This document shows, one piece after another, positions 1-9,532 of a stretch of DNA of 9,532 bases. Source of the DNA: a virus (Duplodnaviria > Heunggongvirae > Uroviricota > Caudoviricetes). Both the position numbers and the translations under genes were made by a program. The notes beneath the pieces were generated by a model that worked only from the letters and a program-made list of their open reading frames with translations, had not been told where the DNA came from and ran no database searches. Within the stretch, counting starts at the first letter, position 1; the number at the start of each line of letters is the position of its first letter. Location: the IMG/VR virus record IMGVR_UViG_2778261577_000002, positions 1 through 9,532 of that record. The stretch is one strand, 5' to 3'.

Positions 1-55
1 AGTCATCGGGCATTATCTGAACATAAAACACTATCAATAAGTTGGAGTCATTACC
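1..55 (+). mobile_element. IS1: IS1 right-end fragment: last insB codons (2-40, ...KVIGHYLNIKHYQ*) plus terminal inverted repeat ending GGAGTCATTACC at 55
   Basis: Recognised by recall as the canonical IS1 3' terminus; frame 2..40 translates to the InsB C-terminus with TAA at 38-40; the element is cut by the window edge. Confidence 0.93.
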
Positions 56-1530: not shown

Positions 1531-1588
1531 TTATTCGTCAGCCTGAACAACTGGCATCTGTTGCGCTGCGCCATCGAGAGATTGAGAA

Positions 1589-2188
1589 ATGGCGCATATA
1601 CAACTGGTCAAACAAACCTCTTCTGGTTTACTTCTCCCGGCGACGCCGGAGAGTTGCGATTTTCTGCATCAAATCAAAATAGGTGAGTGGATACACGCAG
1701 ACTTTAAGCGTGTGCGTAACTACGCATTCCACAAGCGTTTTTTCAAACTCCTGCAACTGGGATTCGATTACTGGACTCCGGTCGGTGGGGCGATCACACC
1801 TCGCGAACGAGAACTGCTGTCTGGTTTCGTGGATTACTTGTGCGAATCAGTTGGTCGGGAACACACACCAGCCCTGAGTGATGCCGCAGAGCAATATCTA
1901 AATACAGTTGCGACACGCAGAACTCGGGATACGGCATTGCTAAAGTCGTTTGAGGCTTTCCGCGAGTGGGTAACCATTCAGGCCGGATTTTACACCGAGC
2001 ATATTTATCCGGACGGTAGCCGTGGGCGCAGGGCGAAATCCATCGCGTTTGCGAATATGGACGAAACCGAGTTTCAGCAGGTTTATAAATCTGTTCTGAA
2101 TGTGCTGTGGAACTGGATTCTGTTCCGTAAATTCTCCTCTCAGGAGGAAGTTGAAAATGTGGCCGCACAACTACTGGAGTTTGCGTAA
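1589..2188 (+). CDS. Conserved lambdoid-prophage protein, probably DUF1367 family (199 aa), function unknown
   Basis: Clean 199-aa ORF whose stop overlaps the next gene's start (TAATG at 2186-2190). The family assignment is from recall of the DUF1367-DUF1364-Q arrangement in E. coli prophages, not from a search. Confidence 0.7.
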   Translation: MAHIQLVKQTSSGLLLPATPESCDFLHQIKIGEWIHADFKRVRNYAFHKRFFKLLQLGFDYWTPVGGAITPRERELLSGFVDYLCESVGREHTPALSDAAEQYLNTVATRRTRDTALLKSFEAFREWVTIQAGFYTEHIYPDGSRGRRAKSIAFANMDETEFQQVYKSVLNVLWNWILFRKFSSQEEVENVAAQLLEFA

Positions 2189-2478
2189 TGGTGAATTTAC
2201 GTAAAGCGGCTAAAGGCCAGATGTGCCAGATCAGAATCCCTGGCTACTGCAATCACAATCCCGAAACCTCTGTGCTGGCGCATTACAGGCTGGCGGGGAC
2301 GTGCGGAACAGCGACAAAACCACACGATATGCAGGCAGCGATTGCCTGTAGCTCATGCCACGATTTAATCGACGGGCGGGTAAAAACCAGCGATTACACC
2401 AAAGAAGAATTACGCCTGATGCATGCAGAAGGTGTTTTTCGCACACAAGAAATCTGGAGAAAGGAAGGTTATTTATGA
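2188..2478 (+). CDS. ybcO: YbcO-like DUF1364-family protein (putative phage nuclease), 96 aa
   Basis: Recalled near-colinear similarity to DLP12 YbcO (RKAAxGxxCQxRIPGxCNxNPETSVLAH...TKP...IACSxCHD). Start overlaps the upstream stop (TAATG); stop overlaps the downstream start (ATGA at 2475-2478). Confidence 0.85.
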   Translation: MVNLRKAAKGQMCQIRIPGYCNHNPETSVLAHYRLAGTCGTATKPHDMQAAIACSSCHDLIDGRVKTSDYTKEELRLMHAEGVFRTQEIWRKEGYL

Positions 2479-3017
2479 TTTACCCAACAAATACAGGCAA
2501 AAGCGGGGAACACCTTCGTCTCACCACGCTGGAAAGTGTCTGGATTCAGGGAAAACTGCGCATGTGGGGGCGCTGGTCGTATATTGGCGGCGGTAAGACG
2601 GGAAATATGTTTAACCAGTTGCTGGCATCCAAAAAATTGACGAAAACAGCCGTCAATGAAGCCCTGCGCAGGATGAAAAAAGCGGGAATAGAGAAACCTG
2701 AGCTGGAAGCGTTTTTGCGAGAGATGATCAATGGCAAGCAAAAGACCTGGCTGGCGCATTGTACTGATGCAGAGGCGTTATGTATTGATAGAGTCATAAG
2801 TGAGGTGCTGGCAAAACACCCAGGATTGATTTGTATCCTCCGGCAACGATATGAAGGGAGGGGGATGACTAAGCGTAAAATGGCTGAATTGCTGAATGAT
2901 GCACATCCTGAGTGGTGTTTTAGCACATGCGAAAAGCGAATTGCTAATTGGTTAGCCGTTGCTGAATATGCCCTGTATATTCCCATGCGAGAATCATTTG
3001 CTCAAAAAATAGCTTGA
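2475..3017 (+). CDS. Putative late-gene antiterminator Q (non-lambda, possibly phage-21-type family), 180 aa
   Basis: ATG 2475 is preceded by AGGAAGG and overlaps the YbcO stop. Position is the canonical Q slot: after the nin-like genes and before a tR'-like terminator, tRNAs and the lysis cassette. No CxxC zinc motif as in lambda or 82 Q. The assignment is by synteny and size, not by a recognised motif. Confidence 0.6.
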   Translation: MIYPTNTGKSGEHLRLTTLESVWIQGKLRMWGRWSYIGGGKTGNMFNQLLASKKLTKTAVNEALRRMKKAGIEKPELEAFLREMINGKQKTWLAHCTDAEALCIDRVISEVLAKHPGLICILRQRYEGRGMTKRKMAELLNDAHPEWCFSTCEKRIANWLAVAEYALYIPMRESFAQKIA

Positions 3018-3101
3018 TTTTTTACGCATAAATTGCTTCAATTCCGGTATGCTTCGCAAAGCTGTATCGCGAGGCGAACCAAGCGCATGAACTTTACCAG
3101 A

Positions 3102-3130
3102 ACCCGCCATTGAGCGGGTTTTGTTGTTTC
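3102..3130 (+). terminator. Rho-independent terminator (tR'-like) downstream of the Q gene
   Basis: Hairpin ACCCGC-cattga-GCGGGT (3102-3119) followed by TTTGTTGTTTC, about 85 bp after the Q stop. This is where lambdoid phages carry pR' and tR'. Confidence 0.6.
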
Positions 3131-3170
3131 TGGGGGGGCATTTCGTTAAATGAAGCTGTGTTGTGCGCAA

Positions 3171-3210
3171 TTAGCTAATAACACGAATCGTGAATGTATA
3201 TAATGCGCTT
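3171..3210 (+). promoter_or_regulatory. Candidate stable-RNA-type promoter upstream of the tRNAs (-10 TATAAT at 3199-3204 followed by a GCGC discriminator)
   Basis: TATAATGCGC resembles the rRNA/tRNA promoter -10 plus GC-rich discriminator, and the upstream DNA is AT-rich. No good -35 at 16-18 bp spacing, so confidence is low. The tRNAs could instead be read from pR'. Confidence 0.3.
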
Positions 3211-3351
3211 GTTCCTTCGATGGTGTATTCGAATAACGGATTACTGAATACAGCTATCCCATTAAGGGAACACCGCCATCTGCTCATCGGGAAGAGCCGA
3301 CCATCATTTAAGTGGTAGGTGTGAGATTCGATACCTCGGTGGCGGTTCTGT

Positions 3352-3427
<76 letters not shown>

Positions 3428-3430
3428 TAT

Positions 3431-3505
<75 letters not shown>

Positions 3506-3781
3506 GCATTTGAAATAAGCCTTATTGTATTGCAGCACTGGCGTATTTTTATTACGTGGGAGCAGGTTGTTTCGAAAAAGCATTCTGTTCTCTGGCTATG
3601 ATTTGAGGCCAGGTGTAGCCTCAGTGCTGATTTTTTTACGGCAGCAGAATGGTGCATTATCGGTGGAGATTTTGTATTTCCTGGCAGGGCCGGTGATGTG
3701 CCATCCCGATGTTGTAAACATCGCTAAAAATGACATTGAGATTAATCATATACTAAGCAAAACCTGGAAATACATCCTTTA

Positions 3782-3807
3782 CCGCCTCCACCGGGCGGTT
3801 TTTTTTA
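3782..3807 (+). terminator. Rho-independent terminator in the Q-to-S interval
   Basis: CCGCC-tccacc-GGGCGG hairpin (3782-3798) followed directly by a run of nine T (3799-3807). Confidence 0.6.
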
Positions 3808-4190
3808 TTCTGAACCCTAAAAAAAGAAACACGGACACTGATAATGCCCGTGTGGCAATGCCATGTAAGTTAGCGATGAATATGGCGCAAAAAAAGCGCG
3901 GCCGTCGGATTAACGCCGCGGGACAAAGTCCATGAAGAATCATAAGTATTGGCCCCCTTCTGGGACATGTTCATACTACTAAGCTTCAGAAGTGGTTTAA
4001 ATCATCAAATTAACCTTAATTTTCGATAAGTCTTATTTCATTTCTTTGCGCCACATCTGGCGCGCATCAAATAACGCCACGCAAAGGGCATCTGCGGATG
4101 CCGGTGCTTTTGACGGGGTGTTTTTTACGGGCCGCTGGTGGCCATTTTTTGTTTCCATTACACAGCGCCCGCATCTGCGAGGTGGGGGTT

Positions 4191-4406
4191 ATGAAATCCA
4201 TGGATAAGTTAACAACGGGTGTCGCCTATGGCACCTCCGCAGGCAGTGCTGGCTACTGGTTTTTACAGTTGCTCGATAGAGTAACTCCGTCACAGTGGGC
4301 TGCAATCGGTGTGCTGGGTAGTCTGGTTTTTGGCCTGCTGACGTACCTGACAAACCTTTATTTCAAGATTAAAGAAGATAAGCGCAAGGCTGCGAGAGGT
4401 GAATAA
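4191..4406 (+). CDS. S: Phage-21-type class II holin (pinholin S21-like) with dual-start motif MKSMDK, 71 aa
   Basis: Strong recalled similarity to S21/EssD ([25 protein letters not shown]...[14 protein letters not shown]...[20 protein letters not shown]). SD GAGGTGGGGG upstream of ATG 4191. The six-frame ORF 4098..4406 extends upstream, but the homologous start is 4191. Stop TAA overlaps the endolysin ATG. Confidence 0.93.
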
Positions 4407-4903
4407 TGCCTCCATCATTACGAAAAGCCGTTGCTGCTGCTATTGGTGGCGGAGCAATTGCTATAGCATCAGTGTTAATCACTGGCCCAAGTGGTAACGA
4501 TGGTCTGGAAGGTGTCAGCTACATACCATACAAAGATATTGTTGGTGTATGGACTGTATGTCACGGGCATACAGGAAAAGACATCATGCTCGGTAAAACG
4601 TATACCAAAGCAGAATGCAAAGCACTCTTGAATAAAGACCTTGCCACTGTCGCCAGACAAATTAACCCGTACATCGAAGTCGATATACCGGAAACAACGC
4701 GCGGCGCTCTTTACTCATTCGTTTACAACGTGGGTGCTGGCAATTTCAGAACATCGACGCTTCTTCGCAAAATAAACCAGGGCGATATCAAAGGCGCATG
4801 TGATCAGCTACGTCGCTGGACATATGCTGGCGGTAAGCAATGGAAAGGTCTCATGACTCGTCGTGAGATTGAGCGTGAAATCTGTTTGTGGGGTCAGCAA
4901 TGA
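4406..4903 (+). CDS. R: SAR endolysin (phage 21 R21-like lysozyme, T4-lysozyme fold with N-terminal signal-anchor-release domain), 165 aa
   Basis: N-terminal Gly/Ala-rich weakly hydrophobic SAR segment ([20 protein letters not shown]) followed by a lysozyme core with the catalytic E...D...T spacing ([18 protein letters not shown]). Strong recalled similarity to R21/RrrD. Start overlaps the holin stop (TAATG); stop overlaps the Rz start (ATGA). Confidence 0.93.
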
Positions 4904-5365
4904 ACAGAGTAACCGCGATTATCTCCGCTCTGGTTATCTGCATCATCGTCTGCCTGTCATGGGCTGTTAATCATTAACGTGATAACGCCATTACCTACAA
5001 AGCCCAGCGCGACAAAAATGCCAGAGAACTGAAGCTGGCGAACGCGGCAATTACTGACATGCAGATGCGCCAGCGTGATGTTGCTGCACTGGATGAAAAA
5101 TACACGAAGGAGTTAGCTAATGCGAAAGCTGAAAATGATGCTCTGCGTGATGATGTTGCCGCTGGTCGTCGTCGGTTGCACATCAAAGCAGTCTGTCAGT
5201 CAGTGCGTGAAGCCACCACCGCCTCCGGCGTGGATAATGCAGCCTCCCCCCCGACTGGCAGACACCGCTGAACGGGATTATTTCACCCTCCGGGAACGAC
5301 TGGTAATGATGCAGGCCCAACTTGAAGGTGCTCAGCAATACATAACCGAACAGTGTTTAAAGTAA
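4900..5365 (+). pseudogene. Rz: Rz (i-spanin) pseudogene: in-frame TAA at codon 26 (4975-4977) plus a +1 frameshift in a C7 tract (about 5246-5252)
   Basis: The frame from ATG 4900 gives [25 protein letters not shown] then TAA where lambda-type Rz has Tyr. The same frame continues with Rz-like sequence ([34 protein letters not shown]...[24 protein letters not shown]) until the C-run, after which the Rz C-terminus ([17 protein letters not shown]...) is only readable in the +1 frame. Confidence 0.85.
5120..5365 (+). pseudogene. Rz1: Rz1 (o-spanin lipoprotein) reading frame embedded in Rz; signal peptide and lipobox are intact, but the frame is shifted into the Rz C-terminus by the C7 tract
   Basis: ORF 5120..5365 starts with a typical Rz1 N-terminus ([20 protein letters not shown]...[16 protein letters not shown]) and then reads [11 protein letters not shown]..., which is Rz sequence. 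With six C instead of seven the frame would read ...[20 protein letters not shown], a canonical Rz1 end. Confidence 0.75.
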
Positions 5366-5502
5366 AATCTTAACTACAATATGATTCATTTTGATGATTG
5401 TTTCATAAGGAACAGTGAAGTAAGATCTAAGAGGAGTTAAATTTTATACAGTATAATCATAATATTGCAGCAAGGTGGTTATAATTGAAAGAATATTTAG
5501 AT

Positions 5503-6960
5503 ATGAATACATCTCATGTAAGAGTTGTTACTCATATGTGTGGGTTTCTGGTTTGGCTCTATAGTCTTTCAATGTTGCCACCAATGGTTGTAGCATTGTT
5601 TTATAAAGAAAAAAGCCTGTTCGTTTTCTTTATAACTTTCGTTATGTTTTTTTGCATTGGTGGCGGAGCGTGGTATACAACTAAGAAATCTGGCATTCAA
5701 TTACGTACCCGTGATGGGTTTATTATAATTGTAATGTTTTGGATTTTGTTTTCTGTTATTAGTGCATTCCCTTTATGGATTGACTCAGAACTTAATTTAA
5801 CGTTCATTGATGCTCTGTTTGAAGGGGTTTCTGGAATAACAACAACAGGAGCAACTGTAATTGATGATGTTAGTTCATTACCTCGGGCATATTTGTACTA
5901 TCGGTCACAGTTAAATTTTATAGGTGGTTTAGGAGTTATTGTTCTGGCGGTTGCTGTATTGCCATTATTGGGTATTGGTGGTGCAAAGCTTTATCAGTCA
6001 GAAATGCCGGGGCCATTTAAGGATGACAAACTCACTCCCCGCCTGGCCGATACGTCACGGACACTGTGGATAACTTATTCTTTATTAGGTATTGCTTGTA
6101 TTGTCTGTTATAGACTTGCAGGAATGCCTTTGTTTGATGCTATTTGTCACGGGATTTCCACAGTTTCGCTTGGTGGTTTCTCAACTCATAGCGAGAGTAT
6201 CGGATATTTTAATAACTATTTGGTTGAGCTGGTGGCTGGTTCTTTTTCCCTGCTATCGGCTTTCAACTTCACTCTTTGGTATATTGTTATTAGCAGGAAA
6301 ACGATAAAACCTTTAATCAGAGATATTGAACTTCGTTTCTTTCTGTTAATAGCCTTAGGGGTGATCATTGTTACCTCTTTCCAGGTCTGGCATATAGGTA
6401 TGTATGACTTGCATGGAAGTTTTATTCATTCGTTTTTTCTTGCCAGCTCCATGCTCACTGATAATGGTTTAGCTACGCAGGATTATGCAAACTGGCCCAC
6501 GCACACGATAGTGTTTTTGCTGTCGTCAAGTTTCTTTGGGGGATGTATAGGTTCAACTTGTGGTGGAATTAAGTCACTTCGATTTCTTATACTTTTCAAA
6601 CAAAGCAAACACGAGATAAATCAGCTTTCTCATCCCAGAGCGTTGTTGAGTGTAAATGTAGGAGGGAAGATAGTTACAGATCGTGTAATGAGGTCTGTAT
6701 GGAGTTTCTTTTTTCTTTATACTCTCTTCACGGTGTTTTTTATACTGGTGTTAAATGGTATGGGATATGATTTTCTTACATCATTTGCAACAGTGGCTGC
6801 ATGTATTAATAATATGGGATTAGGTTTTGGGGCTACTGCATCGTCATTCGGAGTGCTTAATGACATTGCAAAATATTTAATGTGCATAGCTATGATTCTT
6901 GGTCGCCTTGAAATTTATCCTGTTATTATATTGTTTTCAGGTTTTTTTTGGCGCTCCTAA
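5503..6960 (+). CDS. trkG: TrkH/TrkG-family potassium uptake membrane protein (Rac prophage trkG-like), 485 aa from ATG 5503
   Basis: Long polytopic membrane ORF, recognised by recall as near-identical to E. coli K-12 TrkG (MNTSHVRVVTHMCGFLVWLYSLSMLPP...). AT-rich compared with its neighbours. An in-frame TTG at 5485 with a well-spaced SD (AGGTGG, 5473-5478) is an alternative start. Confidence 0.93.
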   Translation: MNTSHVRVVTHMCGFLVWLYSLSMLPPMVVALFYKEKSLFVFFITFVMFFCIGGGAWYTTKKSGIQLRTRDGFIIIVMFWILFSVISAFPLWIDSELNLTFIDALFEGVSGITTTGATVIDDVSSLPRAYLYYRSQLNFIGGLGVIVLAVAVLPLLGIGGAKLYQSEMPGPFKDDKLTPRLADTSRTLWITYSLLGIACIVCYRLAGMPLFDAICHGISTVSLGGFSTHSESIGYFNNYLVELVAGSFSLLSAFNFTLWYIVISRKTIKPLIRDIELRFFLLIALGVIIVTSFQVWHIGMYDLHGSFIHSFFLASSMLTDNGLATQDYANWPTHTIVFLLSSSFFGGCIGSTCGGIKSLRFLILFKQSKHEINQLSHPRALLSVNVGGKIVTDRVMRSVWSFFFLYTLFTVFFILVLNGMGYDFLTSFATVAACINNMGLGFGATASSFGVLNDIAKYLMCIAMILGRLEIYPVIILFSGFFWRS

Positions 6961-7046
6961 TATATGGCTGATTTATAATTGTGAGTTTAATATTATGTTG
7001 ACTCACTCATTGATCCAATACCTAACTTTACCAGCAACCCCTCCGT

Positions 7047-7080
7047 CCCCAGTAGCACTGGCTGCTGGGGTGCGTTTTAT
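7047..7080 (+). terminator. Possible terminator after trkG
   Basis: Hairpin CCCCAG...CTGGGG (7047-7052 / 7065-7070) followed by TGCGTTTTATT. The T-run is interrupted, so this is weak. Confidence 0.3.
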
Positions 7081-7097
7081 TCATAAAGCAAGGCTGT

Positions 7098-7889
7098 ATG
7101 AGCGAGAAATTAAAGATAGTCTATCGCCCATTACAAGAATTGCCACCGTATGCGCACAACGCCAGGACGCACAGCCCTGAGCAGGTGGCACAACTGGTAG
7201 AAAGTATTAAGCAATTCGGCTGGACTAATCCGGTGCTGATTGACGAAAAGGGCGAAATTATTGCGGGTCACGGTCGTGTTATGGCGGCTGAAATGCTCAA
7301 AATGGATTCTGTTCCGGTCATTGTTCTGTCTGGCCTGACGGATGAGCAGAAAAAGGCGTACCGCCTGGCAGATAATCGCCTGCCGATGAATGCTGGCTGG
7401 GATGAAGATCTGTTGCGGATGGAGCTGTCGGACCTAATCAATGCTGATTTTGATGTCTCCCTGACAGGCTTCATCCCGACAGAAATTGATGAACTGTTGA
7501 CGGATGTTTTGCCCGGTACAGGAAATGAGGAGGAGCCGTATACGACGAAAATTGATACGCCTGTTTATGAGCCGTCGGGCGGTAAACCGGATATCAGTGA
7601 ACTGTACGACGATACGAAAACTCAGGAGCTGATCAGCCGGATACGTTCGGCGTCCCTTGAGCCTGATATTGAGAAATTCCTCCTGTGTGCGGCAGAACGT
7701 CACACGGTGTTTAATTTCAGCAGAATTGCGGACTATTACGCTCACGCCCCCGCTGAAATCCAGTGTTTTTTCGAGGAGTCGGCGCTGGTGATCATTGATT
7801 ATCAGCAGGCTATTGAAAATGGATTTGTCCGGATGACGCAGCGCATGGTGGAGATCATGCATGGTGGTGAGGAGGAGGAATATGCGTGA
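7098..7889 (+). CDS. ParB-like nuclease-domain (ParB/Srx superfamily) protein with an uncharacterised acidic C-terminal domain, 263 aa
   Basis: N-terminal about 120 aa has the ParB-N architecture (conserved ...NARTHSPEQV...L..SI...GW.NPVLID..GEIIAGHGR..AA motif). The C-terminal part has no methyltransferase motifs and ends GGEEEEYA. The stop TGA (7887-7889) overlaps the downstream start. Related to K-12 Rac ynaK by position. Confidence 0.8.
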   Translation: MSEKLKIVYRPLQELPPYAHNARTHSPEQVAQLVESIKQFGWTNPVLIDEKGEIIAGHGRVMAAEMLKMDSVPVIVLSGLTDEQKKAYRLADNRLPMNAGWDEDLLRMELSDLINADFDVSLTGFIPTEIDELLTDVLPGTGNEEEPYTTKIDTPVYEPSGGKPDISELYDDTKTQELISRIRSASLEPDIEKFLLCAAERHTVFNFSRIADYYAHAPAEIQCFFEESALVIIDYQQAIENGFVRMTQRMVEIMHGGEEEEYA

Positions 7890-8814
7890 TGATTTTTGCG
7901 CCTTTATTCTGACTCACGGGCGACCGGACAAAGTTCTGACTTACCGGACGTTGCGTCGTGCTGGCTATACCGGGAAAATTTTTATCGTTGTTGATGATGA
8001 AGATAAGACACGGCATCAGTACATGGCTGAATTTGGTGAACAGGTGCTGGTGTTTTCCAAAGCCGATATCGCCAGTCGTTTTGACGAAGCCGATAATTTC
8101 TGTGACCGCCGCTCAATTTTTTACGCCCGTAATGCCTGTTTCGACCAGGCAAAACTGGTCGGGTGTAAATACTTCATTCAGCTCGATGATGATTATCACG
8201 AGTTCCAGTTTCGGGTGGATCGCAACTATGACCAGGCCTATTTTCCGATAAGGAAACTGGATGCGATCCTTTCTGAAATGCTGGCGTACTACGAATCAAT
8301 ACCTGCTCTTTCCATCGCTATGTCGCAGGGAGGGGATTTTCTTGGTGACAATGGCGGCCATGCTTCGTGGGTGAAACGCAAGGCAATGAACAGCTTTATC
8401 TGTTCGGTTGATCGACCGTTCTCATTCATGGGGCGCATTAACGAGGATGTGAATACGTACACGAATCTCGGTCGCTGTGGTGAATTGTTTATGACGATCG
8501 GTGCTGTCCAGTTAGGGCAGAAACAGACGCAGAAAAACAGCGGCGGAATGACCGAGCTGTATCTGGATTCCGGAACCTACGTTAAAAGTTTTTACTCCGT
8601 CATGTATGCGCCGTCGTGCGTAAAAATCTCACTGATGGGTGCCAGCCATAAACGCATTCACCATCAGGTCACCTGGAACAACGCTGCAGTAAAAATCCTT
8701 CACGAAAAATACAGGAAGAAGACACCCTGCATATCAATGGGGGTGACAAATGATTCCGTATTCGAAAGTCGAGTCTCTGGCAGCGTGCCGGATGACTGCA
8801 CAACAAATCGCTGA
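7882..8814 (+). CDS. Uncharacterised protein with a GT-A-like nucleotide-sugar transferase signature (N-terminal beta-strand CAFILTHGRP, FIVVDDED, DxD-type motif QLDDDYHEF), 310 aa from ATG 7882
   Basis: The ORF is open from 7861. ATG 7882 is preferred because GAGGAGGAGG lies 5-6 nt upstream and it overlaps the ParB-like stop by 8 nt, suggesting translational coupling; ATG 7861 with SD GGTGGAG is a possible alternative. The fold call is a motif-based inference, not a database match. Confidence 0.7.
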   Translation: MRDDFCAFILTHGRPDKVLTYRTLRRAGYTGKIFIVVDDEDKTRHQYMAEFGEQVLVFSKADIASRFDEADNFCDRRSIFYARNACFDQAKLVGCKYFIQLDDDYHEFQFRVDRNYDQAYFPIRKLDAILSEMLAYYESIPALSIAMSQGGDFLGDNGGHASWVKRKAMNSFICSVDRPFSFMGRINEDVNTYTNLGRCGELFMTIGAVQLGQKQTQKNSGGMTELYLDSGTYVKSFYSVMYAPSCVKISLMGASHKRIHHQVTWNNAAVKILHEKYRKKTPCISMGVTNDSVFESRVSGSVPDDCTTNR

Positions 8815-9001
8815 CGTTCTGGATGTTGATCTGAACCGACTGAAAGAAAATCGGGAAGCAATGACAGATTTTTATGCGGCCATCCGTAAGGGCAGAGCGA
8901 AAGGTGAAGCCGAGTTACGAGCGGCATTGTTTAAGCTTGCCAGAAAAGGGGATGCCTTTGCTCTGCGCGAACTACTCAGGGTGGATAAAAATCAGGACTA
9001 A
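8750..9001 (+). CDS. Small helix-turn-helix protein (83 aa), possibly a packaging-associated DNA-binding protein
   Basis: ORF with SD GGGGGTGA upstream of ATG 8750. HTH-like segment MTAQQIADVLDVDLNRLKE. Overlaps the 3' end of the upstream gene by 65 nt in another frame. Sits immediately upstream of the terminase-like fragment. Confidence 0.5.
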   Translation: MIPYSKVESLAACRMTAQQIADVLDVDLNRLKENREAMTDFYAAIRKGRAKGEAELRAALFKLARKGDAFALRELLRVDKNQD

Positions 9002-9004
9002 CTG

Positions 9005-9178
9005 ATGAGCAGACCGGACTGGGGGGCGTTGCAGCAGGAGTATATTGCTGAATACACCCGCTCCGGTATATCTCCGGTGGCATGGTGTGAAGCAAGGGGA
9101 CTGAATTACGCAACAGCCCGTCGTTACATCAAAAAAACTCCGAAAAATGCGCAGACAGAAATGTGCAAAACTGGGTGA
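9005..9178 (+). pseudogene. N-terminal fragment (57 codons) of a probable terminase small subunit or HTH packaging protein, truncated by IS1 insertion
   Basis: ATG 9005 gives MSRPDWGALQQEYIAEYTRSGISPVAWCEARGLNYATARRYIKK..., resembling the N-terminal HTH of phage small terminase subunits. The frame runs into the IS1 left inverted repeat and ends at a TGA (9176-9178) contributed by the IS1 terminus GGTGATG. Confidence 0.5.
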
Positions 9179-9532
9179 TGCTGCCAACTTACTGATTTAG
9201 TGTATGATGGTGTTTTTGAGGTGCTCCAGTGGCTTCTGTTTCTATCAGCTGTCCCTCCTGTTCAGCTACTGACGGGGTGGTGCGTAACGGCAAAAGCACC
9301 GCCGGACATCAGCGCTATCTCTGCTCTCACTGCCGTAAAACATGGCAACTGCAGTTCACTTACACCGCTTCTCAACCCGGTACGCACCAGAAAATCATTG
9401 ATATGGCCATGAATGGCGTTGGATGCCGGGCAACAGCCCGCATTATGGGCGTTGGCCTCAACACGATTTTCCGCCATTTAAAAAACTCAGGCCGCAGTCG
9501 GTAACCTCGCGCATACAGCCGGGCAGTGACGT
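9174..9532 (+). mobile_element. IS1: IS1 left end (IRL GGTGATGCTGCCAACTTACTGAT) through insA and into the insA/insB junction; truncated by the window edge
   Basis: Recognised by recall as the canonical IS1 5' terminus; same orientation as the IS1 fragment at 1-55. Confidence 0.95.
9229..9504 (+). CDS. insA: IS1 InsA (transposition inhibitor / N-terminal part of the InsAB' transposase), 91 aa, GTG start
   Basis: Translation [91 protein letters not shown] matches IS1 InsA as recalled, apart from one residue (IFRH here, ILRH in the copy I remember). Confidence 0.96.

Follow-up and report, generated by a model that had tools for sequence, protein, structure and literature searches.

The lysis cassette and its spanin genes

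The stretch of DNA analysed here (9,532 bp, hereafter the window) is the entire contig NLMO01000108.1 of the draft assembly GCA_002229045.1. It carries a lysis cassette in which a holin gene and an endolysin gene are followed by the genes for the two spanin subunits, Rz and Rz1 (Table 1). The holin and endolysin genes had been read as intact in the initial annotation, which was made from the sequence alone, and this was borne out: both cover their Pfam profiles from end to end, their DNA is identical to that of relatives in which they are annotated as essD and rrrD, respectively, and no nucleotide difference separates them from the E. coli genomes 13P484A and 127. The ATG of Rz (4900-4902) overlaps the stop codon of the endolysin gene (ATGA). 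All genes in the window besides Rz and Rz1 are open and free of frameshifts.

Table 1. Features discussed in the text, with positions counted from the first base of the window
Feature	Position	Strand	Evidence
Second IS1 copy (terminal 55 bp), on the edge of the contig	1..55	+	100% identical to the IS1 end in records L001 and L181
Holin gene, phage 21-type class II, essD-like, intact	4191..4406	+	PF04971, E=4.8e-35; dual-start motif MKSM
Endolysin gene, rrrD-like lysozyme with a hydrophobic N-terminal segment, intact	4406..4903	+	PF00959, E=2.8e-45
Rz (i-spanin) pseudogene	4900..5365	+	Repaired gene of 465 bp / 154 aa; PF03245, E=5.8e-53
TAA nonsense codon for TAC (Tyr26), C to A at 4977	4975..4977	+	All compared relatives have C
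Chimeric ORF, 81 aa	5120..5365	+	Rz1 residues 1-44 fused to Rz residues 117-154
C7 homopolymer (canonical length C6), shifting the Rz and Rz1 frames	5246..5252	+	Lambda and K-12 Rac have C6
terS (terminase small subunit), first 56 codons, interrupted by IS1	9005..9173	+	Alignment to terS of record L001 and to IS1

Two independent lesions had been noted in the spanin genes: a TAA in place of a tyrosine codon at position 26 of Rz, and a run of seven C, one more than is needed for both embedded frames to be read canonically. Both were found as described. Codon 26 is TAA, with TAC in every relative compared, and the run has exactly seven C, one more than the C6 of the relatives and of lambda. One lesion is a substitution and the other a homopolymer insertion 270 bp away, in keeping with their independence. 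The two spanin frames are consequently not both open over their full length.

When A4977 was changed to C and one C was deleted computationally, a 154-aa Rz and a 61-aa Rz1 were obtained, with the ends that had been predicted for a six-C tract. Both repaired products occur exactly in public contigs, Rz on 157 and Rz1 on at least 1000. Repaired Rz covers positions 1-125 of the 126 of its Pfam profile. Rz1 has its ATG at 5120, inside Rz and in the +1 frame, and the repaired protein matches PF06085 (E=2e-19), which places it among the o-spanins. The same embedded architecture is known from phage lambda, where Rz1 is likewise contained wholly within Rz, in the +1 frame. Across 81 bp spanning the tract, lambda and the window differ by the extra C and nothing else, and the repaired proteins are full-length matches to PF03245 and PF06085. 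However, the lambda genes are functional, whereas the Rz of the window has an ochre codon at position 26 as well as the C7 tract, and neither subunit is full length.

Close relatives and changes private to the window

The 1,383-bp lysis cassette has 99.9% matches in eight complete E. coli genomes; two of the eight (13P484A and 127) were aligned, and they depart from the window at 4977 and in the C7 run only. Over its left part, the window is closest to ET734: from 1562 to 6996 (5,435 bp), three changes are specific to the window (3962, 4977 and 5246). The change at 3962 is intergenic and consists of G3 (3959-3961) instead of the G4 that is present in every relative aligned there. Two of the three window-specific differences are therefore changes in homopolymer length (G4 to G3 at 3962, and C6 to C7), a pattern that some sequencing chemistries also leave. 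No exact match to 3053-4100 was found in any complete E. coli genome. The right part (6876-9173) is closest to AP027829, with six differences in 2.3 kb. The element is thus a mosaic, because its left part is nearest to ET734 and H2 and its right part to AP027829. The lysis cassette of AP027829 differs from that of the window at about 30 sites.

Two of the three changes relative to ET734 fall in the 466-bp Rz gene (binomial P 0.02; P 0.004 when the rate outside the gene is used); these P values are nominal and post hoc, as the region was picked for its lesions. For comparison, 55 of the 1,386 possible substitutions in Rz (4%) would create a stop codon.

The C7 run and a G7 run at 3132-3138 are the sole runs of seven C or G in the window. 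The G7 run is common to the complete genomes H2, ET734 and 3PT, and has the length G6 in 13P484A and 127. It is intergenic and lies just downstream of a terminator-like hairpin.

The nonsense codon in Rz

As written, Rz ends at residue 25, directly past its transmembrane segment; further along, the frame is shifted at codons 116-118 and then meets a stop at 5269-5271. Judged from its sequence, the gene would count as an i-spanin (an N-terminal transmembrane segment followed by a periplasmic coiled coil) by descent only. The possibility that a downstream restart rescues Rz was considered and rejected, the sole candidate being an ORF at 5059-5271 (70 aa, from Met54) that lacks a membrane anchor and is still frameshifted. 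The exact product of this ORF is absent from the protein collection. A sequence search of the PDB with Rz was uninformative, as the matches were confined to weak coiled-coil hits on subunit b of ATP synthase.

The TAA allele was not seen in any of the collections searched. There was no full-length exact match to an 81-bp probe in 5,426 complete E. coli genomes, where the lone record at 99% identity or above fell outside the full-length rows and is hence a partial match. The allele was likewise found in none of the 2.9 million viral contigs of IMG/VR and in none of 49 hits in species-representative genomes.

It could be argued that both lesions are artefacts and that the spanin pair is intact, as the two do not occur together in any other assembly and the contig is an unverified draft. 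However, substitution errors in the consensus are rare in modern assemblies, and, leaving aside the two lesions and position 3962, the 5.4 kb shared with ET734 are identical, a sign that the consensus is of good quality. We therefore regard this explanation as extremely improbable, and the TAA is very probably real.

Length variation at the C tract

Variation at the tract is rare. Among 4438 E. coli records with a match, three have C7 (2018-06-4CC, which was deposited twice, and A7) and one has C8 (LR-45), so that tract variants make up approximately 0.1% of E. coli records. The tract is C6 in all close relatives of the window. Among the 119 IMG/VR matches listed, 117 have C6 and two have C5, and a scan of all IMG/VR contigs showed no tract of seven or more C. 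The initial annotation had asked whether phages with functional spanins share the seven-C arrangement; C7 was found in none of 376 deposited phage records.

The expansions in 2018-06-4CC, A7 and LR-45 resemble that in the window, and RefSeq lists them as 'frameshifted' rzoD pseudogenes. However, 2018-06-4CC has about 30 differences from the window in the lysis cassette, the C7 of A7 is in a different, DLP12-type prophage, and all three have TAC at codon 26, unlike the window. As the haplotypes are different, these expansions are independent events. Changes of ±1 at the tract therefore recur independently but rarely, as expected of sporadic slippage rather than of a phase-variable switch. A run of 6-7 nt is short for phase variation, and frequent variation among close relatives, which would mark a phase-variable locus, was not seen; phase variation at the tract was ruled out by the low frequency of variants. 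Slipped-strand variation, one of the explanations offered at the outset, is the likely mutational route for C7, with C5, C7 and C8 recurring independently at low frequency.

Sequencing error had been offered as well. It does not explain the TAA; for the C7 it is possible, as the tract has been miscalled in other assemblies. About 30 of the 49 hits in species-representative genomes are lambda DNA (at least 97.5% identical) in non-enteric genomes, the carriers being Cohnella, Flavobacterium, Arcanobacterium, Brevibacillus, Pedobacter, Polaromonas, Ottowia and others. Thirteen hits share one 3.45-kb piece of lambda (45,042-48,488; at least 99.5% identical), mostly as stand-alone contigs of approximately 3.5 kb, some of which have been deposited as plasmids (e.g. 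CP136411.1, 'plasmid unnamed1'). This piece is apparently sequencing control DNA left in assemblies. In five of the 13 the tract reads C4, C5, C5, C7 and C9, while true lambda has C6. The two other contigs that carry the same fused ORF as the window (L003 and L004) are indel-ridden assemblies with many single-base insertions. Because of these miscalls and indel-ridden carriers, a C7 at this site can be an artefact, and that of the window may be a base-calling or assembly error.

In that case the stop codon would be real and the seventh C would not: the genome would have C6, the ochre codon by itself would leave Rz dead, Rz1 would remain an intact lipoprotein of 61 aa and there would be no chimera. 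The miscalls and the indel-ridden carriers, the fact that the difference at 3962 is also one of homopolymer length, and the absence of C7 from the phage and IMG/VR records all speak for such an error. However, the miscalls demonstrated at the tract come from long-read assemblies, while the contig of the window breaks off in IS1, its left end consisting of exactly 55 bp of this repeat, and this suggests, by inference, a short-read de Bruijn assembly. Since the assembly looks short-read and the other genes in the 9.5 kb are without frameshifts, a miscall of a 7-mer homopolymer is less likely. The G7 run at 3132 agrees with H2, ET734 and 3PT, so that homopolymers are not generally overcalled. Moreover, a chance error in a gene that already bears a unique nonsense codon would be a coincidence, whereas decay of a dead gene would not. 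We give an artefactual seventh C some weight but think it unlikely, and the C7 of the window is probably real.

The C6 tract is an indel hot spot, at which some of the changes are rare, real ±1 events in prophages and others are base-calling errors in control DNA. Single-base frameshifts at the C6 tract of Rz/Rz1 should therefore be checked against reads before they are interpreted.

The fusion of Rz1 to the Rz C-terminus

As had been proposed, the seventh C joins the signal peptide and lipobox of Rz1 in frame to the C-terminus of Rz, giving an 81-aa ORF alongside the truncated Rz. The chimera retains the Rz1 signal peptide, the lipobox (VVGC, Cys20), Cys29 and the Pro-rich region up to P44, and it gains the CC2/CTD segment of Rz with its terminal Cys, ending at the Rz stop codon (5363-5365). 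In Pfam it matches positions 1-26 of 41 of the Rz1 profile and positions 90-125 of 126 of Phage_lysis. An AAGGAG Shine-Dalgarno sequence lies 8 nt upstream of its ATG, and because of this good Shine-Dalgarno the chimera would probably be made, and lipidated as an outer-membrane lipoprotein, if the late transcript is produced. Gene callers do predict the 81-aa chimera; in another assembly, for example, it has been entered as protein MBW6101508.1.

A resemblance to u-spanins such as T1 gp11 was considered, as these are also single polypeptides with an N-terminal outer-membrane lipoprotein signal. However, a u-spanin has to be anchored in the inner membrane by a C-terminal transmembrane segment (PMC5295617), and the chimera ends in the soluble C-terminal domain of Rz (...QYITEQCLK) with no hydrophobic C-terminal segment; it also has no partner, and its 61 mature residues cannot span the periplasm. 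A u-spanin-like role was therefore rejected for want of a C-terminal transmembrane domain. Nothing supports a maintained function for the chimera, which is found exactly on only three contigs, compared with at least 1000 for intact Rz1. On these sequence features it is best taken as a by-product of the frameshift and not as a functional spanin.

A Rac-type prophage with a truncated terminase gene

The gene order Rz/Rz1-trkG-ynaK and the 98.9% identity to K-12 Rac over 4920-7351 place the element in the Rac prophage family, and the window can be taken, from its sequence, as part of a cryptic E. coli prophage of Rac type that carries trkG. IS1 is present at both ends of the contig in the same orientation: bases 1-55 are the right end of one copy and 9174-9532 are the left end of another. 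The latter cuts terS after 56 codons, with the junction at 9173/9174, and the contig ends within it. Because IS1 truncates terS, the prophage is unable to form particles or to package DNA.

The 57-aa ORF across the junction of IS1 and terS occurs exactly on nine public contigs, the window among them. Of the four carriers listed, one is the window itself; in each of the other three, Rz is intact and 154 aa long. The spanin lesions are therefore younger than the IS1 insertion. It follows that the prophage was packaging-defective before the spanin lesions arose and that these lesions are private to the genome of the window. In AP027829, uspF and ompN come directly after IS1, and the remainder of the prophage beyond IS1 is gone, a layout that implies an IS1-associated deletion of the prophage structural genes.

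The K-12 Rac prophage belongs to the same family, with the same Rz/Rz1-trkG-ynaK order, and has an annotated pseudogene, rzpR, beside trkG. In K-12, the 5' end of Rz, the holin gene and the endolysin gene have been deleted, and an intact 61-aa RzoR with C6 remains. Unlike K-12 Rac, the window has kept its holin and endolysin genes, and in it Rz was killed by a point mutation and both spanin genes by a frameshift. A 5' truncation of Rz like that of K-12 was found in 15 of the 119 IMG/VR copies listed; decay of Rz is thus common. RefSeq feature names were not usable for counts of intact and broken Rz, as identical sequences are annotated inconsistently (H1 and H2, for example).

Predicted loss of function and origin of the lesions

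In lambda, nonsense codons throughout the periplasmic domain of Rz, up to codon 152, are lysis-defective, and saturating mutagenesis has shown that only the last Rz residue is dispensable (PMC5295617). For lambda Rz1, W46X is lysis-defective while truncation at 55 is tolerated (PMC5295617). Compared with these truncations, the Rz of the window ends at residue 25 and its Rz1 departs from the canonical sequence at residue 45; both are therefore predicted to be null beside an untouched holin and endolysin.

We consider it fairly probable that the locus reflects lineage-specific pseudogenisation of a lambda-type embedded spanin pair in a Rac-type cryptic prophage. Of the explanations put forward initially, decay in a cryptic prophage is the best supported, given the terS gene cut by IS1, the relatives with the same junction and an intact Rz, and the Rz pseudogene in K-12 Rac. 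Under such decay, selection on the last step of lysis would have been relaxed, since the prophage was already unable to form particles. A C to A transversion would have changed Tyr26 to an ochre codon, ending Rz just past its transmembrane segment, and replication slippage could have added one C to the C6 tract. In Rz1 this tract codes for Pro-Pro and in Rz for Ser-Pro-Arg, and because it sits in the overlap of the two genes, one event shifts both. Through the frameshift, Rz would lose CC2 and its C-terminal domain, and Rz1 would lose Asp45 and everything after it, reading into the C-terminus of Rz instead. Any expression of the late operon would then bring an attack on the inner membrane and cell wall without disruption of the outer membrane.

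Relaxed selection alone leaves two of three changes in one gene unexplained, although ascertainment may account for this. A mutational hot spot combined with drift of a dead gene would be compatible with the clustering, and so would a degree of selection against the spanin. Positive selection could have acted if the host gained from loss of the spanin or, after the frameshift, from removal of a toxic truncated Rz, or if the chimera or reversible changes at the C tract block the spanins of co-resident lambdoid phages or switch lysis competence. The concentration of private changes in Rz, both of them disabling, would agree with this, as would the preservation in the chimera of the Shine-Dalgarno, signal peptide, lipobox, Cys29 and Rz C-terminal segment with its Cys, and the independent C5, C7 and C8 variants of the tract. 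However, the chimera is far rarer than intact Rz1, the frequency of tract variants is far below that of a contingency locus, the TAA is unique and the clustering statistic is post hoc. The benefit itself is doubtful because, in the lambda pathway, a spanin knockout leaves killing by the holin and endolysin intact (PMC5295617). Positive selection on the lesions is therefore very unlikely in our view. A more specific version, in which the C tract is a single-hit switch and the C7 lipoprotein acts as a decoy against the spanins of co-resident or superinfecting lambdoid phages, to the benefit of the host, is more improbable still.

With lineage-specific pseudogenisation as the preferred explanation, the decay would be of a kind already known from K-12, whose rzpR is annotated as a pseudogene. 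In annotation, the locus should be entered as a pair of Rz/Rz1 pseudogenes and not as a new "lysis protein"; beyond annotation it has little significance. In a small way it illustrates how fragile overlapping genes are, as the embedding of one gene in the other allows one slip to disable both spanin subunits.

Other features of the prophage

In ET734 (L010), an 18-bp tandem duplication is present inside the Rz/Rz1 overlap, at the position equivalent to 5153 of the window. It is in frame for both genes and repeats MLPLVV of the Rz1 signal peptide; the RefSeq annotation there has a 67-aa rzoR and no Rz.

Upstream of the lysis cassette of the window there is a Q-like gene (DUF1133) at 2475-3017, and the genes for tRNA-Thr(TGT) (3352-3427) and tRNA-Gly(TCC) (3431-3505) are located between the two. 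On the other side of the cassette, a full-length ynaK-like gene with a ParB_N/Srx domain (7098-7889, 263 aa) overlaps a 310-aa gene with a TAGT domain (PF20691; 7882-8814). The ynaK gene is full length in the window and truncated in K-12 and several relatives. Next to the left IS1, a TehB-like/DUF1971 gene lies on the minus strand (437-775), and its homologue in ET734 is split by IS1.
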